Shown: positions 17,164-62,902 of the stretch, piece after piece
Layout: each line of letters begins with the position of its first letter
Position numbering within the stretch: the first letter of the stretch is position 1
DNA from: Okamejei kenojei
Taxonomy: Eukaryota
Direction: 5' to 3'
Assembly (NCBI GenBank): GCA_035221665.1
Contig: CM069139.1
Span: 61,566,001-61,630,000 of the forward strand
DNA length: 64,000 bases
Notes under the pieces: model-generated
Seen by the model: the letters and a program-made list of their open reading frames with translations, nothing else
What the model was told of the DNA's origin: nothing
Database searches by the model: none
Translations under genes and position numbers: made by a program

Positions 17164-17226
17164 TCGTGAGTTGTATCCTCTATGCCTTCTGAGTTCATCT
17201 TTAAGCCCTTCCAACCTATGGTGGAG
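17164..17226 (-). CDS. GPHN: Gephyrin alternative cassette exon, C4d-like, 63 nt (LHHRLEGLKDELRRHRGYNSR)
   Basis: ttttgtttttgtttacacattag|CTC CAC CAT AGG...TCA CGA|gtaact. Phase 0-0, 21 codons, no stop. Resembles the 21-aa mammalian cassette (LHxRLEGLKDEL...) and lies just upstream of the VQSR exon. Confidence 0.88.
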
Positions 17227-26683: not shown

Positions 26684-27312
26684 AGGGCCTGTTCATTCGA
26701 GCACCATTTATGCGATCTGCTAGCGTGTGGGTAGCGTGTGGGTAGCGTGGGACGGGCGCATGGAGTGGTGTGGTGGAGTGTGGAGTGGCGTGGAGGAGTG
26801 TGGACTTCGTCCTGCACAAAATCTTCCCGCGCCACCGGACTGTCGCATAACTGACGGCCAAAGTGGGACAGGCCCAAGACCCTGGCGTGGCGCGGCGCAA
26901 CGTCTCACCTCCAACAGCAGCAGAAGCAGGCAAACGATCCCCGAGCTCGGCGTGGAGCTCACGGCCATTGCGGATCCGGATCCGCCCCCACTTCTACGCC
27001 AAGAGCGGGGCCAAGACGATTGGAGATAGACACAAAATGCAGGACTAACTCAGCGGGACCGGCAGCATCTCTGGAGAGAAGCAATGGGTGACATTGAGTC
27101 GAGACCCTTCTTCAGACTGAAGAATAGTCTCGACCCGAAACATCTCCAGAGATGCTGCCTGTCCCGCTGAGTTACTCCTGCATTTTGTGTCTATCGTCAA
27201 ATGACATCATGCGCTCCAGACGGCTGTGCGGATGCATGATGACACGCGCGACCGTCACGTGTCAGTCACTACCGGCCTGTTGCGTAAATGACGGCCATGT
27301 GGGACAGGCCCT
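26684..27312. mobile_element. Second copy of the Harbinger-like MITE family with the internal palindrome
   Basis: Ends TAA-AGGGCCTGT... and ...GTGGGACAGGCCCT. Interior collinear with 14582-15251, including the palindrome at about 27025-27195. Confidence 0.82.
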
Positions 27313-29114: not shown

Positions 29115-29640
29115 GTTTTGGTCACAGATGTCTTTTAAATGTTTCGATAGTACCTTTCTTAATTACCTCCTTTGGCAACTTTCCATATATCCACCAGCCT
29201 CTGACTGAACAAATTGCCCCGCTGGTTCTTATTAAATCTTTCCCCTCTCACCTCAAACCTACATCCCCTGGTTCTTGATTCTCCTACTCTAGGCAAAAGA
29301 TTCATTGCACTTACCTAGTCTATTCACACCATGATCTCAAACACCTATATAAGATCACCTTTCATCCTACTGTACTCCATACTGTAAAGGAGAAAGTCCC
29401 AGCCTGCCCAACCTCTCTCACCCTCATGGCAATAACCTTGTATATATTCTTTGGACTCTTGTCAACATCTTTTCTGTAGAAGGGCGACCAAAACTGAACA
29501 TAAAATATTTACGAGGTTGTTGCCATGAGGGCGTGAGCTGTAGAGAGAGGTTGGGCAGGCTAGGACTTTCTTCTTTAGAGTACAGTAGGATGAAAAGTGA
29601 TCTTATAAAGGTGTTTGAAATCATAAGGTGTATTGGTGAA
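29115..29640. mobile_element. CR1 3' fragments in opposite orientations
   Basis: About 29115-29505 is CR1 on the minus strand. About 29510-29640 is the overlapping CR1 segment on the plus strand. Confidence 0.7.
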
Positions 29641-29922: not shown

Positions 29923-32839
29923 ATAGTCACTCTCTATTCTGCTTATGTATGGTACACAAAGTAATTTTTGCAGATCCAATTGTGGGTTGCCTCTGGGTGC
30001 TCTGGTTTCCTCCCACATCCCAAAGGATAGGTGGGTGCATAGACTAATTGGTCTCTGTACAATTGTAGGGAGTAAATGTGAAAGTATGGTTACATAAAAC
30101 TAGTGTGACGGGTGATCAATGGTTGGCATGGAGTTGATGGGCCTGTTTCCATGTTGTAGATAAGATGATAAGGTCAGGGCCAATAGTGAACGGGGTGAGA
30201 GAGGAGGTGAATACCGAAGTCAAAGTGTTGTATATGATTGCGCGAAGTATAAGCAATAAAGTGAACAAGCTTGAGGCTCAGTTCGAAATTAGCAAGTATG
30301 ATGTTGTGGGAATTACAGATACATGGCTGCAAGAAGGCCAGGGCTGGGAACTGAATATGCAAGGGTATACATCCTTTCGAAAAGACAGACAGGTGGGCAG
30401 AGGGGGAGAGGTAGTTCTGTTGGTGACGAATGAAATTCAGTCCCATGCAAGGGGTGACATTGAAACAGAAGATGTGGAGTCAGTATGGATAGAACTAAGG
30501 AATTGTAAGGGTAAAAAGACCCTAACAGGATTTATCTACAGGCCCCCAAATAGTAGCCTGGATATAGGGTGCAAGTTGAATTAGAAGTTAAAATTGGCAC
30601 GTCATAAAGGTAATGCTACGGTTGTTATGGGAGATTTCAACATGCAAGTAGACTGGGAAAATCAGGTTGGTACTGGACCCTAAGAAAGGGAGTTTGTGGA
30701 GTGCCTCCGTGATGGATTCTTAGAGCAGCTTGTACTGGATTTAGTGTTGTGTAATGAACCGGATTTGATAAGGGAACTTGAGGTTAAGTAGCCATTAGGA
30801 GGTAGTGACCATTTTACTTCGGAGTCACGTGAGTGACTTCGTGAAGACCCCACCAGCACGCATGCGCGACATATCGTCGCTCGCATTTGCAGTCAACAGA
30901 GACTTGTTTGCTTACAGAAACGATGGACAGGAAGTCCAGAATGAAGGCATCGAAGCATGCCTCCAAGGACTGCGGGACTTCGGACAGGAGTCAGCGGCCG
31001 CAATCCCCGGAGCTGCTCCTCCACCGGCAGCACCCGCACCGCGGGCCTGGAAAAGAACGCGGAAGTCGGGGAGACCTGTTCAGTCGGCAGGACCCGACTG
31101 TCCACCACAGCAGGCCAGGGAGCTGCACATTGGTAGGAGGCCCGCGCGGGAGCAGGGTAGGCAAGACCCTGACTCCCTACCGCTTTCACCCGAACAACAC
31201 CGGGCCAGCGGGAAAAAGGTGCGTAAACCCGTGCCTCCTTCAACGGCACGTTCCATTTCCCCTCTATTACAGGTCACCAGAGGGCGGACCAGGGGAAAAA
31301 CCGCACCGAAGTCGAGTAGCCCCGCTGCAGCGGCCGGCACCGACTCACCACCGGCACAGTCCGCCAGATCGCGGGCCAGTGGTAGTACATAAAGGTCGTG
31401 TGGCCCCGCAGTAGCCGCTGGCAGCGACTTTGCGTCGCATCAGTCCCATATGACTGGGACTGGCGGCAACCCCGCGCGGATGTCGGGGAGCCCCGATGAG
31501 GCGGCTGGCACCGACTCACCACCGCTGCTGTCGTACCAGACAGGCGGACCGCTTCAGTCCGGAAGACTGAAGTCCGGAATAACTAGCGGCAAATCCGCGC
31601 GGGAGTCGTGTAACCCGCAGGAGCGGCAGGCAGCGACTACCTACCTAGGTTCCCGAGACATCACTTCGACGCAGATAGCCGCGGCGGTCGCATGGCTCGT
31701 ATGGAGCGTATGGTGGAGCAGCTGCTCAAACGGGACCTTCTCCAACAAGAGCGGGTGTCCCTAGGATCTAGGAGACACACAGCAGGACCACTAAGTATCT
31801 CTCCCTCGTCAATAGGGAGTGCCAGAAGTCAGCCATTAGCTGACTTTGAAGAGGGGTTGGCACAAGAACCGGTGTTGCCAGAGATGCCTGAAGAGGAACT
31901 ACTGGAGGTAGTATAAAAATTCGCCCAACCAGGACAATCTGGGCAACCTCTTCAGCCCAAACTAGCGGCCAGCATCAATTACTTAACCACACACCAGCTG
32001 CGGGAACAGGTGTTTACGGAGGCTATAAACAAGTACAAAGCTCCGGGTAATTGTGTCGCTCAATGTCCCGACCGTCAACACACCCATCTGGGGTAACATG
32101 AGTCCCGGGATCAGGGCCCATGAATTGAAAATTCAGAAAATCCTGAAATTGTTGACCTTTGCCAGGTCCATAGACGGGACGGACATGACGGAGGAGCAAC
32201 AGGATGCACTAGCGTTGCTGTGCAATACACAGTATGAAATCAACTGTTTTCGCAAGAAGAGCTACCAAAACATTATTCGAGAAACTAGGATTTGTCATCA
32301 ATCCAGACAAATCTAAGTTCAACCCTTCTGTGGTTATGGACTTTCTGGGATACACAATTAACACCAATCTTATGATTGTCACTATCCCAGGGGGCAAAGC
32401 AACAGACATAATAGAGGCATGTAACAGCCTTGCTTGCGCCAAGAAATCGACTATTAGACATGCTGCTGAGGTGATTGGGAAGCTTGTAGCTACATTTCCA
32501 GCTGCACAATTTGGCCAATTACACTATCAAAACTTGCAAAGAGCAAAAATCTCAGCATTAAAAGCAAATGCTGGACATTTTGACAGGCCTATGCAGCTGC
32601 CAAACAAGGCGCAAATTGAGCTACAATGGTGGATTAGCAATGTTTGTGATTGTTTTAATCCCATCATTATATCAAACCCATCAGTCGTGTTACAAACCAA
32701 CTTCCAGTTGTGGCGGCAGGTGGGATTTGCATGAGTCTACTCTTCTTCAATCACAAGGTATAAACTATTTGGAATGCTGGGAGCATTTCACGGGCTGCGG
32801 GCTTACTGCACTAATCTGCATCATACGCATGTCCGTCTT

Positions 32840-33261
32840 AACCATATATAACCATATAACAATTACAGCACGGAAACAGGCCCTCTCGGCCCTTCCAGTC
32901 CGTGACGGCCATTTGTTTTCCCCTAGTCCCATCTACCTGCACTCAGACCATTCCCCTCCATTCCCTTCCCGTCCATATACCTATCCACTTTACTTTTAAA
33001 TGTTAAAATCGATCCTGCCTCCACCACTTCTGCTGGAAGCTTATTCCACACAGCCACAACCCTCTGAGTAAAGAGGTTTCCCCTCACATTACCCCTAAAC
33101 TTCTGTCCCTTAATTCTCATGTCATGCCCTCTTGTTTGAATCTTCCCTACCCTCAATGGGAAAAGCTTATCCACGCCAACTCTGTCTATCCCTTTCATCA
33201 TTTTAAAGACCTCAATCAAGTCCCCCCTTAACCTTCTGCGCTCCAAAGAACAAAGACCTAA
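32840..33261 (-). mobile_element. Short young CR1 3' end inserted in the DIRS RNase H
   Basis: TSD CGTCTT at 32834-32839 and 33262-33267. Removing the insert restores CAT GTC CGT CTT CAA ATA GAT AAT (HVRLQIDN). Highly similar to 37436-37858. Confidence 0.93.
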
Positions 33262-33421
33262 CGTCTTCAAATAGATAATACCACTGTGGTCGCGTATTTA
33301 AACCATATGGGTGGTATCAAGTCAATATCTTGTGATGAATTAGCAAATTTAATTTGGCTCTGGTGTATTGAAATAAATATTTGGATATCAGCTACGTACC
33401 TTCCGGGTAAAGCTCAATACA

Positions 33422-33877
33422 GTGGCGGACACCAGGTCACGAGTATTTAATGACAACATCGAGTGGATGTTGAACCCCCAAATATTTGCTAAAATTATAG
33501 CCAAATATGGAACACCAGATATCAACCTCTTTGCGTCCAGGTTGAACCATCAGATACCAACATATGTCTTTTGGGAACCAGATCCTGGGGCAATGGCGAT
33601 GGACGCATTCTCGCTACATTGGGGGAAATGGTTTTTCTATGCATTTCCCCCATTCTGCCTCATCAGTTGGGTATTGCAGAAAATTCAACTAGATTCTGCA
33701 ACAGGTATACTGATAATACCTGACTGGCCCACACAATCATGGTACCCGGTGGTCCTCAACATGATAAAAGAAACATGGGCACAGGTTACCAAATGCCCGA
33801 ATTTGGTGACCAATCCCATAACAGGGGAAAATCATCCGTGCCATGGTCATCTGAACCTGTTGGCTTGCAGGTTCTGA
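33422..33877 (+). pseudogene. DIRS DAM-like methyltransferase domain (C-terminus of a broken pol ORF)
   Basis: EWML...INLFASRLN...DAFSLHW...YAFPPF...IIPDWPTQSWYP, typical of DIRS1 methyltransferase domains. Confidence 0.85.
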
Positions 33878-33915
33878 GGAGGCCACTACTGTAATTCGGG
33901 CTGTCATCAAGAACC

Positions 33916-34830
33916 ATGGACATCGTTACAGCATCGTGCAGAGAGTCCACAAGGAAACAGTACCTCACCCACATCAGGAAACGGGAGGCCTTCTGTAGTC
34001 GGACCAAGACCACCTACAACTCTGCTACGATCACCAATGTGCTGGAATTTCTCGCGGGCCTTCATTATGATGAGGGCCTCAGTTACAGTGCCATAAACAG
34101 TGCCAGGAGTGCGCTGTCATCCTATCTCAACATTGGAGTGGGATCTCACCAGCTGGTATCCAAACTAATGAGGGGTATATTCAATTCCAACCCTCTCCGA
34201 CCACGATATAATATTACCTGGGATTTTAGGGTGGTGTTGACCCTACTCAGGAGCCGTTCGCTTATGACGGGATTACCACTGGACAAACTCACCTTGAAAG
34301 TGGTGTTGTTAATGGCACTGACCACTGCACAACGGGTCCAGACTCTACAGAAACTAAAACTGGATAGAATGGTCTCGACTCCCAATAAAGTGACTTTCTT
34401 TATAGATGAGTTGCTTAAACACAGACCTGGGACTACAGGACGGAAATTGGAATTCCTAGCATATCCCGTTGATGTAAGACTCTGTATAGCCACCCATATC
34501 CGACATTATATTAATGTCACACACACCATCAGGAAAATGGAGACGAGTCTGTTTATCAGCCATAAGAACCCACATCACAGGGTGACGGTGCAGACTATCT
34601 CCAGGTGGCTCAGGGTGGTATTGGGTGCAGCAGGTATGGACACTAACATTTTTAAATCTCATTCCACCAGGGCTGCATCCACATCAGCGGCGAGAACCAT
34701 GGAGGTACCCATGGATCATGTCCTCGCAACAGCGGGCTGGGCCAGTGAAACTACATTTCAGCAGCTTTATAATAAGCCTGTGGCCGCTCCCGCAACGTTT
34801 GTGGAATCAGTTTTAAGTGCTGTTCCCTAA
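33916..34830 (+). CDS. DIRS tyrosine recombinase, open 304-aa frame
   Basis: Catalytic set R (TAQRV), HxxR (HSTR), W (AGW) and Y (LYNKP), preceded by an N-terminal core-binding domain. Confidence 0.9.
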   Translation: MDIVTASCRESTRKQYLTHIRKREAFCSRTKTTYNSATITNVLEFLAGLHYDEGLSYSAINSARSALSSYLNIGVGSHQLVSKLMRGIFNSNPLRPRYNITWDFRVVLTLLRSRSLMTGLPLDKLTLKVVLLMALTTAQRVQTLQKLKLDRMVSTPNKVTFFIDELLKHRPGTTGRKLEFLAYPVDVRLCIATHIRHYINVTHTIRKMETSLFISHKNPHHRVTVQTISRWLRVVLGAAGMDTNIFKSHSTRAASTSAARTMEVPMDHVLATAGWASETTFQQLYNKPVAAPATFVESVLSAVP

Positions 34831-35435
34831 ATGTTTATCCCCGAGTTAGGGGTTTATTGTTTGTATTAATAAATACGTTATTATTTTTCAGCTTGTTCAA
34901 GTCTGAAATACGTTAACTTACTTCCTCCATCAGTAATTAGGCAGTGTGAGCATGGACGTGGTCCAGGGCATGGAATCACAGAGCTTTGAAATCTTCACGA
35001 AGTCACTCACGTGACTCCGAAGTAAAATAGTAGGATTAAACGAGAACTTACCAGTTTGAAGTTTGATCCTTATTTTATGAGGCGTTACGATGAGGGATTT
35101 CGTGCCCTCCGCTCCCAACCCTCTATTATAAGGTCAACTGGTATATAGAGTCTCTTAAATCTTACTATCTTCAGTCATTGTTGTTATCTGTGATTTCACA
35201 CCGCTGCTTCCCTCATCGTAACTCCTCATAAAATAAGGATCAAACTTCAAACTGGTAAATTCTTGTTTAATCTTACTATTATATGTTAAGTTTTAATCTA
35301 CAATTTGAGAGGGATAAGGGTAAATCGGAGGTGTCAGTATTACAGTTGAACAAAGGGGACTATGGAGCCATGAGGGAGGAGCTGGCCAAAGTTGACTGGA
35401 AAGATACCCTAGCAGGGATGACAGTGGAACAACAA

Positions 35436-37858
35436 AGTGTTGTTTGGAGTTTGTAAAATGTGTGCAGGATAGTTTTTTGCAGCAGTACATAGAGGTATCG
35501 ACCAGAGAAGGGGCAGTGCTGGACCTCCTGTTAGGAAATGAGGCAGGTCAGGTGACGGAGGTATGCGTTGGTGAGCACTTCGGGACCAGTGATCACAATA
35601 CCATTAGTTTCAATATAATTATGGAGAGAGTCAGAACTGGACCTAGGGTGGAGATTTTTGATTGGAGAAAGGCTAACTTTGAGGGAATGCGTAAGGATTT
35701 TAAAGGAGTGAATTGGGACACTTTGTTTCATGGGAAGGATGTAGAAGAGAAATGGAGGACATTTAAAGGGGAAATTGTAAGAGTACAGAATCTTTATGTC
35801 CCTATTAGGTTGAAAGGAAATAGTAAAAATTGGAAAGAGCCATGGTTTTCAAGGGAAATTGGACACTTGTTTCGAAAAAAGAGAGATATCTACAATATTT
35901 ATAGGAGGCATGGAGTAAATGAGGTGCTAGAGGAGTATAAAGAATGTCAAAAGAATCTTAAGAAAGAAATTAGGAAGGCTAAAAGAAGATATGAGGTTGC
36001 TTTGGCAAGAAAGGTGAAAGTAAACCCAAAGGGTTTCTACAGCTATATTAATAGCAAAAGGATAACGAGGGATAAAATTGGACCATTAGAGAACCAGAAT
36101 GGACAGCTATCTGCAGAGCCAAAAGAGATGGGGGAGATATTGAACAATTTCTTTTCTTCGGTATTCACCAAGGAGAAGGATATTGAACTCTGTGAGTTAA
36201 GGGGAAAAAGTAGTAGCTATGGAAACTATGAGATTCAAAGAGGAGGAAGTACTGACACTTTTGAAAAATATAAAAGTGGATAAGTCTCCAGGTCCAGACA
36301 GGATATTCCCTAGGACATTGAGGGAAGTTAGTGTAGAAATAGCAGGAGCTATGACAGAAATATTTCAAATGTCATTAGAAACGGGAATAGTGCCGGAGGA
36401 TTGGCGTACTGCGCATGTTGTTCCATTGTTTAAAAAGGGTTCAAAGAATAAACCTAGCAATTATAGACCTATTAGTTTGACCTCAGTGGTGGGCAAATTA
36501 ATGGAAAGGATACTTAGAGATAATATATATAAGCATCTGGATAAACAGGGTCTGATCAGGAACAGTCAACATGGATTTGTGCCTGGAAGGTCATGTTTGA
36601 CAAACCTTCTTGAATTTTTTGAAGCGGTAACTAGGGAAATTGATGAGGGTAAAGCAGTGGATGTTGTCTATATGGATTTCAGTAAGGCCTTTGACAAGGT
36701 TCCCCATGGAAGGTTGGTTAAGAAGGTTCAATCTTTGGGTGTTAATGGCGGAGTAGCAAGATGGATTCAACAGTGGCTGAATGGGAGATGTCAGAGAGTA
36801 ATGGTGGATGGCTGTTTGTCAGGTTGGAAGCCAGTGACCAGTGGGGTGCCTCAGGGATCTGTGTTGGGTCCACTGTTGTTTGTCATGTACATCAATGATC
36901 TGGATGATGGGGTGGAAAATTGGATAAGTAAGTATGCAGATGATACTAAGATAGGTGGTGTTGTGGATAATGAAGTAGATTTTCAAAGTCTACAGAGAGA
37001 TTTGGGCCATTTGGAAAAGTGGGCTGAAAGATGGCAGATGGAGTTTAATGCTGATAAGTGTGAAGTGCTACATCTTGGCAGGACAAATCAAAATAGGACG
37101 TACATGGTAAATGGTAGGGAATTGAGGAATGCTGTGGAACAGAGGGATCTAGGAATAACTGTGCATAGTTCCCTGAAGGTGGAATCGCATGTAGATAGGG
37201 TGGTAAAGAAAGCCTTTGGTGTGCTGGCCTTTATAAATCAGAGCATTGAATATAGGAGTAGGGAAGTAATGTTAAAATTGTACAAGGCATTGGTAAGACC
37301 AATTCTGGAGTATGGTGTACAATTTTGGTCGCCTAGTTATAGGAAGGATGTCAACAAAATAGAGAGAGTACAGAGGAGATTTACTAGAATGTTGCCAGGG
37401 TTCCAGCAACTATGTTACAGAGAAAGGTTGAACAAGTTAGGTATTTATTCTTTGGAGCGCAGAAGGTTAAGGGGGGACTTGATTGAGGTCTTTAAAATGA
37501 TGAAAGGGATAGACAGAGTTGACGTGGATACGTTTTTCCCATTGAGGGTAGGGAAGATTCAAACAAGAGGACATGACATGAGAATTAAGGGACAGAGGTT
37601 TCGGGGTAACGTGAGGGGGAACTTCTTTACTCAGAGGGTGGTGGCTGTGTGGAATGAGCTTCCAGCAGAAGTGGTGGAGGCAGGATCGATTTTAACATTT
37701 AAGAGTAAAGTGGATAGGTATATGGACGTGAAGGGAATGGAGGGGTATGGTCTGAGTGCAGGTAGATGGGACTAGGGGAAAACAAATGGTCGGCACGGAC
37801 TGGAAGGGCCGAGAGGGCCTGTTTCCGTGCTGTAATTGTTATATGGTTATATGGTTAT
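35436..37858 (+). mobile_element. Young 5'-truncated CR1 LINE, ORF2 with a single frameshift
   Basis: ORFs 35444-36283 and 36219-37775 (518 aa, complete RT with YADD). Tail (ggttatat)n. TSD AACAA at 35431-35435 and 37859-37863. Confidence 0.95.
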
Positions 37859-38760: not shown

Positions 38761-39110
38761 CAAACATCTCCGGCCGCCCCGGACAAGGATGGGACACTCT
38801 GGAGGGGACGGGGATGGAAGTGAGACTCCGCTCATAAATCTGCCTCCTGGGGTTATGCAGGAGGGGTGCATGGTTCGCCCTTGTATAATAACCCTGATTA
38901 ACTAAGGAGGGCAGCCTGAGTGTGAATGGAACCCATACACCCAGGCTGAAGGGGACCGGACCATGATACATTAGATTGTTACTGCTGAGATTGTCCTCTC
39001 ACACGCACCCCTCTCCTGCATTACCCCAGGAGGCAGATTTATGTGCGGAGCCTGACTTCCGTCCCCTCCAGAGTGTCCCATCCTTGTCCGGGGGCGGCCG
39101 GAGATGTCTG
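38761..39110. repeat. Foldback element with inverted arms of about 105 bp
   Basis: 38763-38870 is the reverse complement of about 39003-39107 (acatctccggccgccccggacaaggatgggacactctggaggggacgg...). Confidence 0.85.
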
Positions 39111-44921: not shown

Positions 44922-44963
44922 CTCTGTAGCACAATAAGAAGGTGTGCATGAAGAGAGCTCAGC
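44922..44963 (-). CDS. GPHN: Gephyrin alternative cassette exon, C4c-like, 42 nt (AELSSCTPSYCATE)
   Basis: ttttcttttcccttgctgcacaaccag|GCT GAG CTC...ACA GAG|gtacac. 14 codons, phase 0-0. Aligns without gaps to the recalled mammalian cassette ARLPSCSSTYSVSE (A, L, S, C, Y, E shared). Confidence 0.8.
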
Positions 44964-45962
44964 CTGGTTGTGCAGCAAGGGAAAAGAAAACACTGTTAAT
45001 GAGAGTGCGCCAAAAAAAGGTCTGAAGAGGTTCTCTGCATAGGAGGTTCCAGTTCTGAGGCAGAAGGCAGGGGTTTCATTGATCCATCCTTCTTTTGAAG
45101 TTGGGATAGTTTTGGTAGATTATACAAGATTTGACATTTAACATCAGGAGCTGATGCCAACACAAAGTAACCTGTATCATTTTTGTTGGCATTTATTTCA
45201 GACAACTTTTAAAAATGTTCTTGTAACATCTTTACAACAATTACACCATGTGGCTGATTATAGGTTATCAAAGTTTTGTCCAAGACCTTATTTCTGAAAT
45301 CTTTCAAGATCAAGTAAGAAACATATACTAGCTTAGATTCTATTCACCTTGAGGTGCTGACATTATGTTATCTCCAACAAAGGTCAAGGGGAACTCTATA
45401 CTACCAGGAATATCAACAATTATATTTCTCCAGCACCTTTATCTACCTTTGATTTTGCAGCATTTGCAGTTCCTTCTTAAAACACTTTGTCTACCCCACT
45501 GCAAAATCTCCTCAAGGAATGCCAACTTTGAAGAAGTTCTCTTCCTCCCTCCGAAGACAGTTTTACAACCTCCTCTCTAACTGCTCTCCCTCTGTGGCTT
45601 CTCCCCCCCCCCCCCCCCCCCCACCCTACATCAGTCTGAAGAAGGGTTTCGGCACAAAACGTTTCCTATTTCCTTCGCTCCGTAGATGCTGCTGCACCCG
45701 CTGAGTTTCTCCAGCACTTTTGTCTATCTGTAATACAGATTTCTTCTTAAGTTCTCTAATATTAGCGTTTAGAGCAACAAAATGGATACCATTTCATTTG
45801 ATGCAGGGAATGGTTATTTAAAGTGTATTGTAAGCTATTCTTCAGCCTCAATCTAATGAAACCCTTGTTGTTGTGGAAAAGGAGCAAAGAAGTATGAAAG
45901 TAAATCATTTGAGCCACTATTATCGACCTCCAGAAGAGTAACATCACCAGGTAAAATTAAAT

Positions 45963-46034
45963 ATTTACTTTGAATGAGACTCCTTTCACATTTCCTTCCA
46001 GCTAATCTTTGAGTTCATTCAGCTTTTGATGGTA
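45963..46034 (-). pseudogene. GPHN: Gephyrin C4b-like cassette with in-frame stop (YHQKLNELKD*LEGNVKGVSFKVN)
   Basis: tatatgtag|TAC CAT CAA AAG CTG AAT GAA CTC AAA GAT TAG CTG GAA GGA AAT GTG AAA GGA... Aligns to the recalled mammalian LHRKLEELRDxLEGNVKGYSLRVN. TAG at 46004-46002. No GT after codon 24, but AAA|gtaaat follows codon 22. Confidence 0.82.
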
Positions 46035-47823
46035 CTACATATAAACATCAGATTTAAATAGCCTGTCATTTGACCTTTGGAAGAAATTTAATTCCAAAAC
46101 AAGCATAATTTACATCTTAATGTGTCTTTCACAGGAGTTTTCTGAATCAAAGCTTAAAGCTGCAATAAATTACAGTGCATACTTTGTACAGTTTTGCCAA
46201 TTTACTCAGCTATTAGAAGGAATTTTAGAAAAAAAAATACAAATTAAGGAATGATGTTAAGTTAGGATTTGGAAGAGTTTTGTGCATGAGTAATTTTCAG
46301 TCTGAAGCAGAAGGTAGAGGTTTCACTTGACCTAATATACTTGACCTAATAATATATAAGTTGAATTGAACTTGGTCAAGGTTCACTCAAGGAACCATCA
46401 ACTTTAGTGGATAACTCAGAAGCGTAAAAAATGTTTATATGCATTACATTGTACCAGGCATAAACCTACAAGAACTACATCCAACTGTGCAATGGTAAAG
46501 TGATTTTGACTTCATGTTCTCGCCTTGGCCCAACCTCCCCTACTTAATTCCAAAGTAAATGCAGTGACAATTATAGCGGTGATTGCCCAATGCATTACCT
46601 GTTGCTGTGGTTTAAACACATATTAATGCTGTACAATATTTGTTCAAGATAATTACACTTGCAATGATACCACTGGCGACTGATAGCTGATACTTGACAG
46701 TTTTAACAAACAAAGCACAAATGTCAATTCACGGTGTTTGGCAGATTGCGATAGAATCATTCAATCAGTATCTTAAACAAAATATACTTTAGCAGAAGAG
46801 CTAAATTAAGCTGAATAACAATGGAAATTTGTGAGCACCAAAATGATTGATGAGCTGGGATTAAGCAAAATTAATATTCAATAAAATGTTAACAGCCATA
46901 TGAATAAAATATAAGAGAGCAAGTCTATGATTGATGACAAGGCACCAATGTATCTTAAAAACCTGAAAAATAACTGGGAAAGGGGAGGACGTTTGTGTTC
47001 TGCAGGAAAATGTTGATGGATTGGCCAAGTCAGCAGAAAGTACCCATGTGAAATTCAATTTAAGGACGTCTAAGGCAGATGGTAAACAAGAAAAAGCAAA
47101 TGTAAAATGCAGGATATTTAAAGGAGAGGAATGAAAGACCATTGCAGTATGTTCACAGGACAGGATCATTAGGTGGATAAGTGCAGGTTACTTTATGGCC
47201 GATGCCTAGAAGAGCTGGCAGGTCATGCCAGATTTGTATAAATCACATCTGGATTACCAAGTATCCGGTCGCAACATTATAGGAAGGATGTAATAACACT
47301 ATAATTTAGCTGCATGCCACAATTGGCTATGCTGGCCATTTCTATTTATGTAAAGCCATTAACATAAAAATATCCTCAAGTATTTCATAGGAATATTAAT
47401 AAATAAAAATAGATGCGGAGCCACATAATGATTGAAAAGTTGACCGGAAGTGAATAAGGTAGATTTACAACATTGTTTAATAAAAAGTGAGGCAGAGACA
47501 TGAAGTGAGAATATTCAAAGGTTTGTGACCTGGGCACCTGAAAGCATGGTTGTGAAAAATGTAAATCTACAATCCGGCAGTATAAAACTCTAGAACTTGA
47601 GGGGATATATTTTTTTAATGAGTGCAGAAGAGATCAGCTACTGTTTCATGGCTGGGAATTTTAGCTGCATTTCCACAATTGGCTAAGATGGCTTGCTTGG
47701 AACAGTAAAGACTGAGGCAAGACATAATTGGAATATATAAAATAACAAAGGGACTAAATGAAGTGAATAAGAATTATCTATTGTACAAATAAAGAGTGCT
47801 TGAAATATACAAAAGATCTAGTG

Positions 47824-52433: not shown

Positions 52434-55400
52434 TGTAGAGTAGGTACACGGACACCTTAAGGTCTTCACTACTTTATTAATCATACATCATATAGCCCTA
52501 GCTGTACGTGGTCTGTCACGATCACCAGAGAGAGAGCTAGGGGCGTGTGGGTTACAATTATACTAACTGGTGGGGGGGGGGGTTGGTAGCATGGACATCG
52601 TCAATATCAATTAAAGGTGTATACACATCATCTACATCCTTCCTCTACCAAAACAAACAGTGAGTGACAGGGCGACCACGTCTCATGTGCTAGGGTAAAT
52701 GCAAACAGTAAAGCACGGGAAAACAGAATCACATGTAATCGCCGTAACAGACCGGCGGCCTGACCAGGCGACCAGACCGGATCCGCACCTCGCCATCACC
52801 TCCTTCCCCGACGGGAACAAGCGGGGACACCGGGGCATGGTGGGGGTTACGGACAGGAGAACCCCTGGGTGACGAAGGCATTGGGGGGGACGGCGAAGAG
52901 AAGGGTGAGGAAGCCGGAGAAAGCCGGACAGCAGCCGGGAGGAGGACAGGAGGAGGACGAGTGGGGGGGTTGGCCCCAGAGGAACGGGCAAAGCACTGGG
53001 CCGCGACAGTGGCAGCAGGGGGGCATACGGAGCCGCCGGGGGACGGAGAGGCTCGTTCACGAGCCGGAGATGCTGACGGGACCGGCGGTACACCCTTCCA
53101 TCGTGGTTGACAAGGTACGAACGAGGGGAACCGGCAGAACCGACGACCATGGCCAGCTTGGAACGGCCAGAAGTGGACCTCATACAGACGACCTGGCCGG
53201 GGAGAAGAGAGCGGAGGACGCGGCAGGACCTGTCGTGGGAACGCTTCTGTATACCGTGTTTTTGGGCAATGCGTTTCCGGACCAAGGCAGGTTTAAAGAC
53301 GGAGGGGGACAGAGACTGCTGAGACACCGGGACCGTGGGCCTCATGACTCAGGACATGAGTCGCTGAGCCGGGGAGCCCAGGGCATGGTCGCGGGAGATG
53401 TTGCGGAGGTTCAGCAGGGCCAGGTAGATGTCGGAGCGGGATAGGCGGCAACGTTCCAACAATCCTTTAGCACTGCGGACCGCGTGCTCGGCCAGTCTGT
53501 TGCTCTGCGGGTATTCCGGGCTGCTGGTGTAATGACGAAAGTTCCATCGTTCGGCAAAAGCGCGGAACTCGGCACTGGTGAACTGGCTGCCGTTGTCCGA
53601 CTGCAGGCTGGCCGGTGGGCACGAAGTTAACGTTTAGGACTATCAGATCAGACGTCTCGTATGGATGCCGGGTTGTGGATGAGAGAGGCGCCCGAGACAG
53701 CAACAAACATGTGAAAGTGAAGCGTTGTAGCTGGAGCATCATGCGCTGGAGCCGGGAGGAGGCCATGTGTATCGGCTTGTTGAGGATGGTGACCAGAGGT
53801 TTGTGGTCCGTCTCGACAGTGAAGCAGTTGCCCAGGATATAGTCTTTGAATTTGGAGCAGGCAAAGTCAACAGCCAGTAGCTCCTTCTCAATCTGGGCAT
53901 AGTGTTGTTCAGCGGTCGTCATTGTGCGGGATGCGTAGGACACAGGCAGTTGCACCCCGTCATGGATCTGCAGGCAGGCGGAGGAAGCGATACCTGCCGA
54001 AGGGCGTTCTGAAGGTCGTCAGGTGCGAGGATCGCTCGTCTAGAGGTATCTGCCAGAACGAACTCTTGGCATCAAGAACCGAGAACACGGTGGCAGGGCC
54101 GACCTGTGCAGCAACATCCTCCACCGTCCGCATGGGATAGTGCGGGCACCTGATGGCCAAGTTCAAGTCCTTAGGGTTGATGCAGATCCGTATTTCGCTC
54201 GTCTTTCTTCGCAGCGACAACCATAGTAGAAACCCACCGGGTGGAGTCCGTTACTGGCTTCAGAATGCCCGTGGCCACCATCTCGCGAAGAGCAGACTCG
54301 ACCTTGCCCCTCATGGCGAAGGACACACGGTGCGAGGCACAGATGACCGGCGTGATTGAGGGCAATCCTGTAGCTGCAGGGCAACTTCCCCAGCTTCAAG
54401 TCAAGCCGGTCAGGGAATTCGGCCAGCGGATTCAGGGGTGCCTCTACCAGGTGGACATCACTGTGGAAGCTCACCACTCCGAGGTCCTGGCAGGCCTCCA
54501 CGCCGAGCAGGGGGTCACATTTACCGTCCAGCAGGGAGGGGCCGAGAGGTCTTCAGCACCTTGCAGTGGAGAGTGGCCATCCCCACAGGAACAAGTACGC
54601 ACCCCCATAGGCATGCAAAACAGCACTGTCTGTGGAAACGGGCTCATTATTTCTTATCTTCCTGAACAGGCTTGTTAACATAACATTAGCAGCAGCCCCC
54701 GTATCCACCTTAGCAGAGAAGGCCATGCCATTCGGACGGTCGGGTCCGTTATCAGAGCAGCTGCACCTCGCAAGGAAAACACACTCAGCTCGCTTTGAGA
54801 CGAGTCAGGGTCAGACGGGGGGAGATCATCGTGCTGGAGATGGGAACCAGACGCTGTATCATCACGTGTCAGGTAGCGAGACGGTTTCTGCTGTGGCTGT
54901 GCAGGGTTCCCACGGGAACGGCATGCTGCCGAGAAGTGGTTGGGCTATTTGCAGAAATTACAGGTTTTCCCTAACGCTGGGCACACATTAGAACGGTGTG
55001 AAACAAAGTTACAATTTGGACTTCGTTGAGGCGGTCTGAAGCCCCGCAGTGGGCTTGCCCTCTGTCGCCGGGGAGCATTGTACAGCGAGACTGACTGCGT
55101 GGACCACCGGGTCAGGTACAGCGGAGGAGACAGCCTCAGCTAAACGAGAGGCATTGAATGTCAGATCAGGCTTACGCAGCAGCTCAGAGCGCAGCTTATC
55201 ATCCCGTAGACCAAAAACCAAGATGTCACGGGTCAAAGTATCAGGGGTCAGAACATGCAGGTCACATCGGCGAGCCAGTTGGCGCAGCGCGGCCACGAAA
55301 TTGTCAATAGATTTCCCAGGGTTTTGACGTCGGGAGAACAATTTGAAACGCTCTAAGATGTGGTTAGTGGGAAGGTCACACATCGCCGTAAATTTAACAA

Positions 55401-55942
55401 GCAGACATACCGGGTCCTGGACACTCTCACCCTGTCCACAGATGAATGACTCCGAACGCTCGAGCACTTCGGGACCAGCTACATTGAGCAGCAGGGAAGC
55501 CTTGACTGCGGGGGCCACAGCAGGGTGAGCGATTGTAACATAATGCTCAAAGTCATGTCGGAACACACACCAGCGATGAGTGATGTCTGCATCGAAGACT
55601 AGGATGTCAGGTTTACGACAGGCAGAAGCCATCACGGCACAGGGACTAAAAAAATAAAACGCGATAGACTAGAGACGCAGAAAGAAGCACTTCCGACTGG
55701 AGGCGTGGGTTCGTATCCCACTTCTGACACCATGTAGAGAAAGTACACGGACACCTTAAGGTCTTCACTACTTTATTAATCATACATCATATAGCCCTAG
55801 CTGTACGTGGTCTGTCACGATCACCAGAGAGGGAGCTAGGGGCATGTGGGTTACAATTATACTAACTGTTGGGGGGGGGGGGGGGGTGGTTAGCATGGAC
55901 ATCGTCACTATCAATTAAAGGTGTATACACATATCATCTACA
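52434..55942 (-). mobile_element. Gypsy/Ty3 LTR retrotransposon A (Mag-like), internally deleted
   Basis: TG..CA LTRs at 52434-52636 and 55733-55942, TSD CTGGA, tRNA-Leu PBS and PPT AGAGGAAGGA. Gag ORF 55009-55635, plus fragments of RT (VLDAKSSFWQ), RNase H (YAQIEKELLA) and integrase. Confidence 0.95.
55698..55732 (+). other. Extended PBS: 35-nt copy of the tRNA-Leu 3' half including CCA
   Basis: TGGAGGCGTGGGTTCGTATCCCACTTCTGACACCA abuts the 5' LTR. Vertebrate tRNA-Leu(CAA/CAG) ends TGGAGGCGTGGGTTCGAATCCCACTTCTGACACCA as I recall it. Confidence 0.88.
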
Positions 55943-56800
55943 CTGGACAACTCGTCCTTTCCCACCAAAACCACCCCCTCCCCAGGCACCTTCCCCTGCA
56001 ACGGCAAGAGATACAACACCTGTCCCTTTACCTTCCCCCTCGACTCCATCCAAGGACCCCAACAGTCTTCCAAGCTCTTCCAACCTCATCTACTGTATCT
56101 GCTGTTCCAGGTGTCAACTCCTGTATATCGGCGACACCAAGCGCAGGCTCGGCGATCATTTCGCTAAACATCTCTGCTCAGTCTTAACCTACCCGATCTC
56201 CCGGTTGCTCAACACTTTAACTCCCCCTCCCATTCCCAATCTGACCTTTCTGTCCTGGGCCTCCTCCATTGTCAGAGTGAGGCCCAGCACAAATTGGAGG
56301 AACAGCACCTCATATTTTGCTTGGGTAGCTTACACCCCAGCGGTATGAACATTGACTTCTCCCATTTCAAATAGCACTTGCTTTCCCTCTCTCTCCATCC
56401 CCTCCCCCTTCGCAGTTCTCCCACCAGTCTTACTGTCTCCGACTACATTCTATCTCTGTCCCATCGATTCCCCTGACACCAGTCTGAAGAAGGATCACGA
56501 CCCGAAACGTCACACATTCCTTCTCTCCAGAAATAATGCCTGAATTACTCCAGCATTTTGCGTCTACCAGTAGAAATAACATTTTCTTCAAATTCTGAAC
56601 CTGAATAAATAACACTAAAGTCAATATGAAAACATATATAGGGTTCAATTGCAAAATAGTTTTAAAAAAGCAACTGAAGCTGAAAACTGCAGGTTTTGGA
56701 AAAATGGGAGGCAATAGAGAAAGTAGGTACAAAATGATAAAGCAGAATTTGGGAGTGAACTGTGTAAACAAACTTGCAAAAAGTTTGTGAACATATTTAC

Positions 56801-57054
56801 TTTAATGCCCCTGTCCCACTTAGGAAACCTGAACGGAAACCTCTGGAGACTTTGTGCCCCACCCAAGGTTTCCGTGCGGTTCCCGGAGGTTTTTGTCAGT
56901 TTCGATCTTTAGGGAGACTGACAAAAACTTCCGGGAACCGCACGGAAACCTTGGGTGGGGCGCAAAGTCTCCAGACGTTTCCTAAGTGGAACAGGGGCAT
57001 TAGGGATCCGCCTCTACTAGCAATTCCTTTCGCTTCATCTGCACTTCAAAGTTG
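56801..57054 (-). pseudogene. GPHN: Gephyrin C4a-like cassette remnant (QL*SADEAKGIASRGGSLK), split by a MITE
   Basis: 57054-57000 translates as QL*SADEAKGIASRGGSL. Removing the MITE at 56806-56999 and one 3-bp flank restores ...GGA TCC CTA AAA|gtaaat. 12 of 19 residues match the recalled mammalian QIRRPDESKGVASRVGSLK. The acceptor reads taa instead of tag. Confidence 0.85.
56806..56999. mobile_element. Palindromic Harbinger-like MITE inside the GPHN C4a exon
   Basis: TIRs TGCCCCTGTCCCACTTAGGAAAC...GTTTCCTAAGTGGAACAGGGGCA. Nearly the whole element is a hairpin. Flanked by TAA and TTA. Confidence 0.88.
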
Positions 57055-57347
57055 TTACAATGGGAGGGGTAAGTGTTAAGACAGAAGAATGAAGAAATGT
57101 GAACTTAAAAAACAAATTAGATATTTATTCACAATATGCAAGACATTTCATGTAATATTTCAGCTGTTACACCAAATATTACCATGAAAGGTTGCCAAAC
57201 ACTCATACCATTCTTTACAGACAAGGTAATTTTGAATAAAAGATCAATATTATGTCTGTTTAATCACCATTAGCCACACTTCAGTTAACTTTATCATGGA
57301 CTAGTAAAGCTTGCAGAATCCTGTCAATCAGTCAACATTGCAGCCAA

Positions 57348-57697
57348 TCAATTCAATTCAATTCAATTCAACTTTAATGTCATTGCACAGATACAAGTAT
57401 GGGTACAACGAAATGCAGTTTAACGTCAGTTCGTAATAATAGCAATATATAAATAGATACAGAATGCAGACAATATGGACGGAGAGACTGGAGAAATCTA
57501 TCGGTGGGACTCCGAGTTCAGCAGTGATGGTGTTGTTATAGAAGCTGTTCCTCATCCTACTAGTGCGGGACCTGAGGCTCCTGTACCGCCTCCCTGATGG
57601 TAGGAGGGCAAACAGTCCATGGTTAGGGTGGGAGGGGTCTTTGATGATCTTCCCGGCGCGTCTCAGACACCGTTTTCGGTGGAGGGCATCCATGTCA
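57348..57697 (-). mobile_element. Rex1/Babar-type non-LTR element 3' end
   Basis: RAGKIIKDPSHPNHGLFALLPSGRRYRSLRSRTSRMRNSFY followed by aataa-type sequence and a (TTGAA)n tail. Confidence 0.82.
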
Positions 57698-58213: not shown

Positions 58214-61200
58214 TGTAAAGAGCTTAAACTCATACAGGTTGAAAAACAAGCATCTTTATTATTCAGGTCATGATCTTGCAAGCAGGTCATTACACGTTCA
58301 CACTGCTACAGTTACTGGCAGGCAGTGGGCGAGTCTTTACACTATGAATGTTATAGTTAGGCGGAGTTATAATTACTAGGCATTCTAATTGGCTAAGATG
58401 CAATAGCCAATCTACATCTCTTCTCGTATAAATGAAAAACGAATAAAGCATTACTACTGCAACAAGTAAATAAAATGTTAAATCGCCACATCTAATAATA
58501 ATGGGGTTAAACATAATCACTATATCTAACAGGTGGCTTGCTAACTAACCCACCCGGTCCTCGTACGGTATGGAACTGCCTCATCAACCTTTTCCTCCGT
58601 TCAGTGAGCCCGACGGTCTATGGGGGGATACCGTAGGGGAACCAATGGAAGACTGTCGCGGGGAAACCGGAGAACCGGATACAAAAGGTGGCATGGGGGC
58701 AGACCGACGCGGGGGGTGGATGGGACTGGCAGCGGCAGATGCTGGAACAGCAATCACTTTAAAAGTTGAGCGGTGGGGCATCAGGACCCTGGAGCGCCGG
58801 ACGCCGTTCCTTCACAGGAAGGAGGTGTTGACGGTTGCGTCTATAGATGGTGCCGCCGACATCGACCAGGTAGGAATGCGGTTCCTGTGAGGGTCCATAA
58901 ATGTACCCCAGTTTGGTATGTCCTTTGTCTGTTTGTAGTCGGAACTTAAATGAGAGGCTTAAGTGGTCTGCTGGTATTGTTATAACTCCGTTTCTGCGCG
59001 TCACGTTTAGACTGTACTCGTTCTTGAACTACAGTGGGGGTGACAACTTTAGGTTTTAGTTGATCTTGGGCGACGGACAACGGGGGTCGCGTTCGGCAGA
59101 ACATCAGGCGCTGGGCTGGAGAACTGAGAATGTTCTCATATCTCTAGCAATATTTCGCAGGTTCAACATCAGATTTAGCTAGGTAGGAGCGCTCCATGAG
59201 TTGATTGGCGCTCCGAACAGCACGCTCGGCAAGTCCATTGGACTGTGGATATTCTGGGCTGCTGGTCACATGTCGAAAGTTCCATCGCTTTGCAAAGTCT
59301 TTGAACTTTTGACTAGTGAATTGGGTCCCATTGTCAGTCTGGAGATAAGCTGGAATTCCATGTGCAGCAAAATGGATCCTGAGCTTTTGGATGACTATCT
59401 CTGAGGAGATGGTTGGCAGAAAGTAAATTTCAAACCAGTTAGAGTACGAGTCCACAAACACGAGATAGTGCTTCCCGTGCCAGTCAAGGATATCGGCAGC
59501 CACCAATGACCAGGGTAGAGGGGGAGCCGGTTGAGACAGCAGGAGTTGTTTTTGCTGGAGTGGTACCTGTCTGTTACAGATCGTGCATGATTCTGATTTC
59601 TCCCGAATGTACTTGGTCATTCTGGGCCAATAAATCATTTATTTTGCAAGCTGTAAGGTAGCCTCCATGCCTGGATGACCACCGTGGATGACCGTCTTGT
59701 GACCCTTGACAATCCTGTACTCCATCCTGTAGTACTAGTTCGTCACGCACCAGGAAGTATGGTCGTAATTCAGCGGGAAGTGCTAGATTGTTTGTTTGGC
59801 CACCCACCTTTGATGATGGAAGTCAGCAGTTGGGAGGTTTTGCCTGCGGTGTATTCAGCGAGGCGGCGCAAGTGGTTGGTGGGAACAAATGAGACTTTCA
59901 GAATGGAGAATTTGTCCTGTTCAAATGGGTGTTGTTCGCTGGTGGTGCGTTGAGCTCTAGTTAGAGGGTTTGCGATGTGCATGTCTTTACCTTTTTTGTA
60001 GACAATGCGAAAATCGAACTGTTGTAGCTGCATCATCATACGTTGGAGCCTGGCTGGGGCAGCATGAATCAGTTTCCTCAGGGTGGTGACGTGGTTAATG
60101 ATCAGTCTCAACTGTGAAGGTTTTGCCAAAAAAGAATGTCTCTGAATTTGGAACAGCCAAAAACCACGGCAAGCAGTTCTTTCTCTATATATGCGTACCG
60201 TTGTTCAGTATCAGTTAGGGTGCGCGATGCGTAGGGCACGTAGGTCGCCGTTGAAAGAAGTTTGCAGACATGCAGCGCCTGTTCCGTACTGGGATGCATC
60301 GCAGGTGAGTGTGACAGGCAGATTGATGTTGAAATATGCCAGGGTTGGTGCACTGGCGAGCTGTAATTTTAAAGTCGCAAAGAATCGATGTGATGGGTAC
60401 CAGGGCCAGGTGTTGTCTTTGTGGGTCAATTGACATCGTGGGGCTGACAATTCACTGAGATTGGGGATGAATTTACCCAAGTAATTGACCATACCCAAAA
60501 ATCGTTGAAGGCTGGTGACGTCGGTTGGTACTGGCAGCTCGTTAATTGCTGGAGTCTTCAATGGGTCAGGTTTTAACCCGTTGCTGGTGAATACGTGACC
60601 GACGTAGGTGACTTCTGGAACTCTGAACTTGCATTTCAGAGGGTTGAGTTTTAGATTAATATCTCTGGCACGGTTCAACATCCTTCGTAGGTTGGCATCG
60701 TGTTCGGTTTCGTATCTGCCGTTTACGAGGATATCGTCAACAATGATGGCACAAGGAAATTCGGCGAACAGCTGTTCCATTGTGCGCTGGAAGACTTCGC
60801 TGTCAGAGTTGATACCAAAAGGCATTCTTAGAAATCGGTAGCGGCCGAATGGGGTGGAGAAAGTTGTGAGAGCGGATGACGCAGGATCTAACAGGGTTTG
60901 CCAAAAGGAGTTCTTAGCATCTAAAACTGAGACGATAGTTGTGTTACCAATCTTTGCCGCTACATCTTCAATGGTTCTCATCGGGTAGTGTTGGCGTTTG
61001 ATTGCCGTGTTCAAATCTTTGGGATTGATGCAGATGCGAAATTCCTTCTTGACTTTCTTGGTGGTGATGACTATGTTGGAGACCCAATCGAAGGGTTCGC
61101 TGACCTCGGCAATGATTCCGATAGAGACCATTTATGACTCCGATAGAGACGTTTTAGTTCATCGTGTACTTTCTCTCGCATGCCGTGGGGGACGCGGTGA

Positions 61201-62902
61201 GGTGCACGAATAATCGGGGTGACTGTGTGGTCAACAGAGATTTTGTATATTGTTGGTAGCTTGCCGGGTTTGTCGTCAAACAAGTCCTTGTAGTTGGATA
61301 GCATATGTTGTGCTGGTCCTTCCGTCAAACAGAGTTTGTGGACAGCACGCCCAAAATAAACCAGACCCAAGTCATGGCAGGCATTGATGCCAAGCAGGGT
61401 TTCCGAGCTTGGTTGGACAATGTAAAAAAGTAAGTTCTTTGTCTGCTCATTGATGATCAGCTTTACCCAACGGAAGAAGAATTTCCCCTCCGTAAGCATG
61501 TAAGGTGGAGGAGTCTTTTTTCATGAGCTCAGTGGTTCTTATCTTGTTGAACGCTTTGAGTGACATGACGTTTACCCTGGCGCCGGTCATGACTTTGACG
61601 ATCAGAGGTTTGTTACTGATTATCATGGTCACCGCAGGATCAGTTACTACGTTTGAGGTTCGCAGGTTTAGGGAAAGTACGGTCTGAGCATCTGAGTTAT
61701 CAGAGTTGACTCAGCGTCTGAGTTATCAGAGTTGTTCCCGTGGGAAGATTTGTCCTGTCCATGGGAATCAGAATCGGACGCGTCTTGTTGAATCAGGTGC
61801 AGCTTCGTCCTTGAAGCTGTACTCCTACTAGATCGACAACAATTAGCAAAGTGGTTGAGTTTCTTGCACTTATGACATACTTTCCCATGGGCTACACAAA
61901 ACTGGCGCCCCCCTCCGGTGGAAATAGTTACAGCTAGAGCAACTCGTGGCAGGCACTTTCTGATCTTTGCAAGATGCATTGAGAAATCTTTGTGGAGAAT
62001 AGCTAGCCAGATTCACTTTAAGTTGTTGATTAAGGTTACCACTATCAAAGTCAGCAAGTGGTGTTACAGTCTCAGCCATTCGACAAGCATGAATTGCTTG
62101 CTCCAGAGTCAGATCAGCATTCCGCAGCAATTCGGCTCATAATTCGGCGGTGGCTCATTCCTCCCACAATTTTATCACGTACTAGCTTATTTGTCAACTC
62201 AACAAATCTGCAATGAGAGCTGATATGTCTCAGATCACTGATGAATCGTTCCACAGGCTCATTAGCCTGTATCATACGGCAAAGAATCTCGTTCTCTCGA
62301 GGATGCTGTTAAATGGCAGATCACATGGTTCTCTGAACTTCCTCAGCAGAACCATAGAGTTGTCAATACTTTCAGCCGGCACCACTACCAGACCATTCCC
62401 GTCTAGTTGAGCTGGTGCGAAATCAAAAGAGTCAGCGCGGATCATAGCCTCTGGACCCGCTATATTCAGCAACAACGAAGCTTTCAAATTATCGGGATCA
62501 TTTTGGTGAATGATGCGGATATAATGAGAGTAGTCCTTCTCAAACATTTGCCAACGCTCAGCAATATCGGAATGAAACACGAGCGGGCTGGGTTTCCGAC
62601 AAGAGTTAGCCATGTCGTCAAAATCACACAAATAAAAACTGATAAACAAAATAAATCGCGATAGATAGACGCGGGCTAGACACGATTTTCTGACACCATG
62701 TAAAGAGCTCAAACTCACACAGGTTGAAACACAAGCATCTTTATTATTCAGGTCATAATCTTGCAAGCAGGTCATTACACGTTCACGCTGCTACAGTTAC
62801 TGGCAGGCAGTGGGCGAGTCTTTACACTATGAATGTTATAGTTAGGCGGAGTTATAATTACTAGGCATTCTAAATTGGCTAACATGCAATAGCCAATCTA
62901 CA
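58214..62902 (-). mobile_element. Gypsy/Ty3 LTR retrotransposon B (Mag-like), near full length but frameshifted
   Basis: LTRs at 58214-58416 and 62699-62902 (I count 6 substitutions and 1 indel). TSD GAAAC/GAAGC, short PBS TGGTGTCAGAA, gag with a CHKCKKLNHFANCC knuckle, RT 60211-61131 (IVDD), RNase H, and integrase 59144-59638. Confidence 0.96.

Follow-up and report, generated by a model that had tools for sequence, protein, structure and literature searches.

RESULTS

Gephyrin cassettes in the window

The window, by which we mean the whole 64,000-nucleotide stretch of DNA analyzed here, carries on its minus strand four gephyrin cassettes and the next gephyrin exon, ordered 57054, 46034, 44963, 17226, and 16457; the exon preceding this C4 cluster lies outside the window. 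When six cartilaginous fish proteins were aligned back to the window, the four cassettes were placed in the order found in shark isoforms. The pairing of the C4 names with the window sequences is partly our assumption, and we take the 22-codon cassette at 46034-45969 to be C4b. A protein search with the cassette at 17226 gave 45 candidates, 43 of which were named gephyrin, and 42 of those came from cartilaginous fishes. The names C4a, C4c, and C4d follow PMC9831149, according to which C4a has 19 residues.

The exon after the cluster (16415 to 16457, minus strand) matches gephyrin isoform 5 (PDB entry 9s3f, residues 305-322, E = 0.0069) and shares 15 of 15 residues with shark isoforms. In the same PDB search, one tau entry ranked ahead of gephyrin, and 14 of the 16 matches were tau repeats. 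The exon resembles a tau microtubule-binding repeat, a likeness that has been noted previously.

Judged against shark and ray references, C4c (44922 to 44963, minus strand) is identical at 14/14 residues and C4d (17164 to 17226, minus strand) at 21/21, and both are intact, with AG and GT in place. The intron beside C4d is highly conserved as well (17104 to 17268, minus strand). Downstream of the cassette, 20 codons' worth of sequence translates to exactly the residues given by elephant shark gene models whose reading frame runs on into the intron. The exon and downstream intron together agree with these models at 41/41 positions, the match also extends upstream, and part of it recurs in a bear model and in two unnamed proteins. 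This conserved intronic sequence is likely to serve in splicing control.

C4b (45969 to 46034, minus strand) is decayed: AG and GT are intact, codon 11 is TAG, and 15 of 22 residues match bamboo shark. C4b is thereby a better prospect than C4a as an exon that contains a stop yet may still be spliceable in the window species. The minimum number of nonsynonymous changes is 3 over 37.3 sites for C4a, 9 over 50.7 for C4b, and 0 over 80.6 for C4c and C4d combined (Fisher P = 0.00036). The idea that C4b decayed before C4a was rejected, as the two rates (0.178 versus 0.080) do not differ significantly (P = 0.23). C4b and C4d, taken with their surroundings (45955-46054 and 17150-17246, both minus strand), align with each other, splice sites included, at a local score of 60 versus 19 to 35 for the five other cassette pairs (scores compared with no shuffle control). 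In sharks, the last five residues of C4a are identical to those of C4b. On the basis of such likenesses, the C4 cluster may have arisen by exon duplication.

Several other features of the window can be recorded here. On the plus strand, opposite to the gene, a tyrosine-recombinase open reading frame (ORF; PF00589, E = 3.7e-08) lies behind two ORFs without a Pfam match at 32213-34830; by its look, we take this to be a DIRS-type retroelement. Also on the plus strand, 35396-37775 holds a LINE-type reverse transcriptase ORF of 524 amino acids (PF00078, E = 4.7e-36) and an adjacent ORF of 295 amino acids. Fragmented LTR-retrotransposon-like stretches with matches to RNase H, integrase, and reverse transcriptase lie on either side of the C4a remnant (53467-55668 and 59144-62790, minus strand). 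Four long inverted repeats, at 27020-27200, 29322-29633, 35023-35283, and 38761-39110, are probably further hairpin elements or inverted repeat pairs, and an assembly gap of 188 N occupies 14332-14519.

The C4a remnant and its lesions

By homology, the first cassette in the cluster is the gephyrin C4a exon of a cartilaginous fish, in a decayed state. The cassette identities place the organism among the cartilaginous fishes, and its repeat sequences and the Rhinoraja records make it probably a skate. As expected of a C4a orthologue, the remnant lies within the gephyrin gene and precedes both the other C4 cassettes and the exon after the cluster. Its frame begins at 57054 on the minus strand, and codons 1 to 17 plus the first base of codon 18 survive at 57003-57054. 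The next three bases (57000-57002) read TAA and form the upstream copy of a target duplication, differing from the target at the middle base. A 194-bp hairpin MITE follows at 56806-56999, and beyond it the downstream copy (56803-56805) reads TTA, the original target, which would end Leu18 and start Lys19. Once the insertion is removed from the frame, 56801-56802 are the final two bases of the former exon, and the donor GTAAAT survives at 56795-56800. If the insertion is disregarded, the remnant is identical to C4a of the stingray Hemitrygon akajei at 16 of 19 residues. The first 17 residues alone match at 14/17, versus 7/17 at the next best of 127,894 six-frame window positions, which bears out the C4a homology proposed in an earlier note made from the letters of this DNA.

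Upstream of the exon, the polypyrimidine tract of the former acceptor (57057-57079, minus strand) has pyrimidines at 16 of the 21 positions from -25 to -5 and is comparable to those of the intact C4c and C4d acceptors. The acceptor itself is dead, with AA for AG at 57055-57056. Within the exon, codon 3 is an in-frame TGA (57046-57048), codon 4 has changed from Arg to Ser (AGT, 57043-57045), and codon 11 has changed from Val to Ile (ATT, 57022-57024). Among 271 proteins, 219 fit the C4a pattern, and Arg3, Arg4, and Val11 are invariant in 219/219 of these, although the set consists of isoform records, mostly from birds and mammals, and not of independent species; the window is altered at all three positions. 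We infer CGA as the parent of the codon-3 TGA. The earlier note had placed the AA (57056-57055), the TGA at codon 3, the 194-bp element, and GTAAAT from 56800 correctly throughout; Arg4>Ser and Val11>Ile are lesions additional to its list.

Like the C4a of other jawed vertebrates, then, the remnant stands first in its cluster, corresponds to a symmetric exon of 57 nucleotides (nt), is identical at the 16 residues noted above, and keeps its donor. Unlike a live C4a, it lacks AG, carries the TGA, both substitutions, and an insertion of 197 nt, and cannot encode the cassette. It thus fails as a functional C4a exon, for which AG, GT, and an open frame were sought. Rescue by another acceptor was considered and rejected: none of the 10 nearby AGs (7 lying in the exon itself and 3 in the 150 nt upstream of it) yields an open in-frame exon. 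A PDB search with the broken exon gave no matches at E values up to 10.

Comparison with relatives

Four relatives were compared with the window organism (A) over 56580-57350 at 80% likeness, one run per organism: X6 (organism B), X9 (C), X20 (F), and X22 (H). They belong to a set of 24 runs from 13 studies, none recorded as RNA; the other 20 comprise runs of organisms A, D, E, and G, one unlabeled run, and additional runs of B, C, F, and H. In X9 (depth, 26.4) and X20 (depth, 20.1), a single contig bridges the site and skips 197 nt at the joint 56804>57002, with 225 and 227 letters, respectively, on its shorter side. The joint retains the downstream TTA copy, and both organisms show T>C at 57055 (plus strand), i.e., an intact AG. 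Neither differs from the window at 57043-57048 among the 40/49 difference rows listed. Tallied by kind of change, the unlisted rows of X9 comprise C>G, T>A, and three T>C, and those of X20 comprise the same changes plus one G>C. Since no unlisted change starts from A, codon 3 begins with T in both organisms and codon 4 cannot encode Arg. The same five unlisted kinds occur in X22, whose cover does not include these codons, so that they most likely sit in the pile of MITE copies. The TGA of X9 and X20 is thus read from a missing difference together with the tally, and an unlikely split of the tally would allow TGG, TGT, or TCA. Val11>Ile is undated, because in X9 and X20 the alignment stops 23 nt away from it and differences so close to an edge may go unlisted.

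The other two relatives carry the MITE. In X6, contigs enter it from both sides (56580-56826 and 56977-57350), the AA acceptor and the codon-3 stop are as in the window, and there is an extra Gly15>Asp (57011). In X22, a contig enters the MITE from the donor side, and cover ends at 57021, short of the acceptor. Flank sites, counted with the acceptor site and four gap-edge columns omitted, give seven patterns that join A and B against C and F and none for either of the other two pairings. In the donor flank, H differs from B at 2 sites, from C at 7, and from F at 6. The midpoint root falls just 1.5 changes into the internal branch and is weak; rooting rests mainly on AG being ancestral, and because AG must be ancestral, A and B form a group.

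Two observations concern the window organism itself. It has 7 private substitutions in the roughly 225 nt of flank at 56580-56804, where B and H differ at only 2 sites; these reflect a long branch or a local rise in rate. Across both C4a flanks, its private changes number 10. A second sample of the window organism (X5) contains 0.75 of the words, compared with 0.83 to 0.92 in the first sample, which reflects lower cover or polymorphism at the locus; word shares near 0.2 in other runs may reflect MITE words only.

Because X9 and X20 lack the MITE and keep AG, yet share the stop and Arg4>Ser with the window, the stop came first. On this evidence, the codon-3 TGA appears to be the oldest lesion that can be dated, and Arg4>Ser would likewise predate the MITE. 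Loss of the acceptor is no older than the branch with the MITE, as the MITE-free relatives keep AG. The earlier note had proposed that relatives without the MITE be examined for both the TGA and the AA, their presence counting against the MITE as cause; the TGA is already there, but the AA is not.

The MITE and its family

The element is non-coding and PIF/Harbinger-like (Tourist-like), and its family is very abundant. It ends five bases before the intact GT, and its 16-bp terminal inverted repeats (TIRs) match at 15 of 16 positions. A 200-nt segment that includes the flanking triplets folds at -162.8 kcal/mol, whereas shuffled versions average -62.45 (z = -22.3) and none of 200 folds as well. 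The TAA and TTA flanks pair with each other in this structure, whose stem stops two bases short of GT. A hairpin MITE in the last codons, as the earlier note described it, is thus upheld. The window holds one full copy. Between 8,627 and 20,114 contigs per run aligned to the compared region, nearly all of them on the MITE part, and the family is abundant also in the runs that lack the MITE at C4a.

A 57-nt exon ending in Ser-Leu-Lys is obtained only when 197 nt are removed, i.e., the 194-bp element plus a 3-bp target, and this is the length that the empty sites of X9 and X20 skip. A Tc1/mariner (Stowaway-like) insertion with a 2-bp TA duplication would require a 196-bp element and a skip of 198 nt; the 197-nt skip therefore rules out a TA duplication, and the preference of the earlier note for a 3-bp TWA holds, with the caveat that the two copies differ. 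The empty site in the relatives is TTA, the copies at C4a are TAA and TTA, and the duplication is imperfect at its middle base. According to PMC4561436 and PMC9179366, PIF/Harbinger elements make 3-bp duplications with T or A in the middle.

Family copies elsewhere in the four runs bear such flanks. Copies matching through TAA (loose ends at 56803) occur in 233, 343, 315, and 209 contigs, and those with loose ends at 56805 and a consensus ending in TT, which we read as TTA, occur in 147, 185, 191, and 138 contigs; these counts are among the loose ends listed (with 578 rows besides), and consensus agreement at 56805 is only 0.32 to 0.37. TAA-ending copies exceed TTA-ending ones, where perfect duplications predict equal numbers; alignment bias is a possible reason. 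In X6, X9, X20, and X22, the loose ends before the target triplet (56803-56805) often finish in AGAC or GAC, which hints at a preferred insertion context wider than three bases. Within the window, an element with a related terminus at 14582-15251 has TAA on both sides, and another at 26684-27312 has TAA and TCA flanks; the two are 85% alike over 441 nt, and both contain internal hairpins. Related termini also occur from 12086 onward and from 28333 onward, with a single end found for each and TAA, TTA, or variant flanks.

The sequence features fit a Tourist-like MITE of the PIF/Harbinger superfamily, of which the element is a putative member. An autonomous element of this kind would encode a Harbinger DDE transposase and a second DNA-binding protein; neither family was detected in the 10 ORFs scanned of the 21 long ORFs in the window. 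The Harbinger-type insertion proposed in the earlier note is nevertheless supported by the 197-nt empty site, by the hundreds of TAA- or TTA-flanked copies, and by the TAA...TAA element in the window. A microRNA precursor or other structured RNA was considered as well and rejected: all seven Rfam matches fall below their gathering scores (best, 68.1 versus 117 bits), and the sub-threshold microRNA-precursor matches are due to the hairpin. Like rice mPing and other Tourist-like MITEs, the element is under 500 bp and non-coding, with TIRs, a 3-bp TWA target, and very many copies; unlike them, nearly the entire element is one hairpin, and its target copies are mismatched. Its TIRs, of 16 bp or slightly more, are shorter than the 25 to 50 bp quoted for fish Harbingers. 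In PMC9179366, no Harbingers were found in the elephant shark, and analysis of further cartilaginous fishes is said to be needed; an abundant TWA-flanked family bears on the question so raised.

C4a in other cartilaginous fishes

Among 69 cartilaginous fish isoform records, which were obtained through a C4d query and attributed according to their first displayed name, C4a is present in Stegostoma (9/9), Chiloscyllium punctatum (8/8), Chiloscyllium plagiosum (3/3), Rhincodon (1/1), and Hemitrygon (4/5). It occurs in none of the records from Rhinoraja (12), Scyliorhinus canicula (14), Scyliorhinus torazame (5), Mobula (4), Callorhinchus (7), and Pristis (1). Two of the S. torazame records are shared with Stegostoma, which accordingly also has forms without C4a. 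C4b occurs in this sample only in four carpet sharks, and in the skate Rhinoraja longicauda, 0 of 12 isoforms contain either C4a or C4b. Region searches with C4a words found no further cartilaginous species among the matches listed (120 of 162 and 120 of 178), and a second look-up of protein clusters yielded none either. The isoform records hint that catsharks, a devil ray, and the elephant shark also lack C4a, which would mean repeated loss; this is a lead only, because absence from predicted isoforms is not loss and the sample is incomplete.

DISCUSSION

Order of events

The reading that best accounts for these data, to which we assign a probability of about 85%, is that a stop arose in C4a first, that the MITE and the loss of the acceptor came later on one branch, and that the exon is now a decayed cassette that is skipped. 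The initial step would have been a C>T change in codon 3, most simply CGA>TGA, which together with Arg4>Ser would predate the split of the A/B lineage from the C/F lineage. From then on, the exon would have been unable to add its 19 residues. Later, on the stem shared by A and B (and probably H), the acceptor would have changed from AG to AA, and a Harbinger-type MITE would have entered the TTA spanning codons 18 and 19, with duplication of three bases. These two events on the shared branch may have occurred in either order, and nothing ranks one order above the other. With no coding value left in the exon, the MITE could become fixed as a passenger. With the acceptor gone, the exon would then always be skipped, and since the 57-nt C4a cassette is symmetric, the reading frame survives its skipping; the products would be ordinary isoforms with C4c, C4d, or neither. 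The neighboring 22-codon cassette would have died likewise, by a nonsense change, while C4c and C4d remained under full constraint.

Loss of such an exon may well be tolerable. According to PMC9831149, mouse neurons use C4a more than any other C4 cassette, with about 19% of hippocampal and 21% of cortical gephyrin transcripts carrying it; how it affects clustering is disputed, and the cassette-free form makes up about 64% of hippocampal transcripts. That most hippocampal transcripts in the mouse are without a cassette makes tolerance of C4a loss plausible.

Alternative histories

The earlier note had left two courses open, in which the MITE either killed a conserved exon or landed in one already dead. 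The second is favored, as both MITE-free relatives lack Arg codons at positions 3 and 4, and the MITE probably did not end the coding role of C4a. For the first course to apply, the MITE would have had to insert into a live exon, with the lesions following, and then to have left by precise excision in the lineage ancestral to C and F. Here, the behavior of the superfamily provides a loophole: precise excision without a footprint is the general rule for PIF/Pong/Harbinger elements, and mPing flanked by TAA and TTA was repaired fairly precisely in yeast (both from PMC4561436), so loss without a scar can also produce an empty site, at the price of one more event. The family is, moreover, abundant in C and F. 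This course nonetheless requires that the MITE was gained and its loss then fixed, where a single gain would do; losing it would have brought no benefit after the stop; and MITE presence tracks the same split as AG>AA and 7/7 informative flank sites. We consider it very improbable. Even further down the scale, and scarcely credible, is that chance likeness or assembly error underlies the lesions or the C4a match. The window organism's own reads were left out of the comparison, which leaves some room for error in the assembly, but a different organism (X6) has all three lesions, the remnant comes first in the expected a-b-c-d order ahead of the following gephyrin exon on a single strand, and the 14/17 match stands against 7/17 at the next-best position.

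Two further histories accept the priority of the stop and differ in what the exon did afterward. One is a refinement compatible with our preferred reading, in which C4a died in two stages: the stop ended coding, a decay-inducing exon was still spliced until the MITE blocked its recognition, and the acceptor then decayed, so that the MITE would have caused the loss of splicing though not of coding. The MITE and AA do share a branch, A and X6 having both and X9 and X20 lacking both; the MITE stem reaches donor position -3; and C and F retain AG beside the stop. A third carrier of the MITE, X22, has no cover at the acceptor, however, and the two events are unordered; AG>AA in a neutral exon needs no trigger, and A has many private flank changes. 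We hold this sequence of events to be possible but unlikely. More doubtful still is that the single nonsense change converted C4a into a regulated poison exon that tuned gephyrin output, lowering it when included. Such an exon may still be kept and spliceable in the C/F lineages and would have been shut down in the window lineage by the MITE and the acceptor change, with C4b perhaps a second case in the window species. Consistent with this, the acceptor is retained in C and F, and none of their listed differences from A falls in the 57-nt exon, where 3.3 and 2.9 differences are expected (P of none at flank rates, 0.038 for C and 0.056 for F); C4b has intact splice sites around its stop; and YCAY motifs near C4a are as frequent as near the live C4d (5 upstream and 5 downstream in 300 nt). 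Once up to 3 unlisted differences in X9 and 1 in X20 are allowed, though, P rises to 0.585 and 0.218, and residual constraint on the C4a exon in C and F is not significant. Five YCAY per 300 nt is about what base composition predicts (an estimate, with no shuffle), nothing suggests that A and B compensated for losing the acceptor, and C4b combines its 9 nonsynonymous changes with a weak tract (12/21 pyrimidines). Like the poison exons of SR-protein genes (PMC13228269), the C/F exon pairs an intact acceptor with an in-frame stop; unlike them, the window copy has no acceptor, and ultraconservation and regulated inclusion are features of the SR-protein exons.

Significance

Lineage-specific loss of alternative exons is known to leave remnants that later gather transposons. 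The decay described here is of the ordinary kind that befalls optional exons, but the order of its steps is unusually clear. As in known cases, an optional, frame-preserving exon decays while its neighbors stay constrained; beyond them, relatives date the lesions with respect to one another, and two cassettes of one cluster have been hit by nonsense changes. The locus is also a clean example of the rule that a transposon within a dead conserved exon need not be its killer, and the MITE and AG>AA are usable as clade markers. We found no paper on gephyrin cassettes in cartilaginous fishes in a search that left most subscription papers and all supplements outside; the accessible parts of PMC3351755 and PMC9206673 contain nothing on this subject.

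C4a is otherwise kept from sharks to mammals, yet it is optional. The authors of PMC9831149 call for deletions of single cassettes. Fishes with a dead C4a would be natural knockouts of this kind, and the window species would be one for C4b as well. Loss of C4a and C4b beside unchanged C4c and C4d suggests that the four cassettes are not equally needed.
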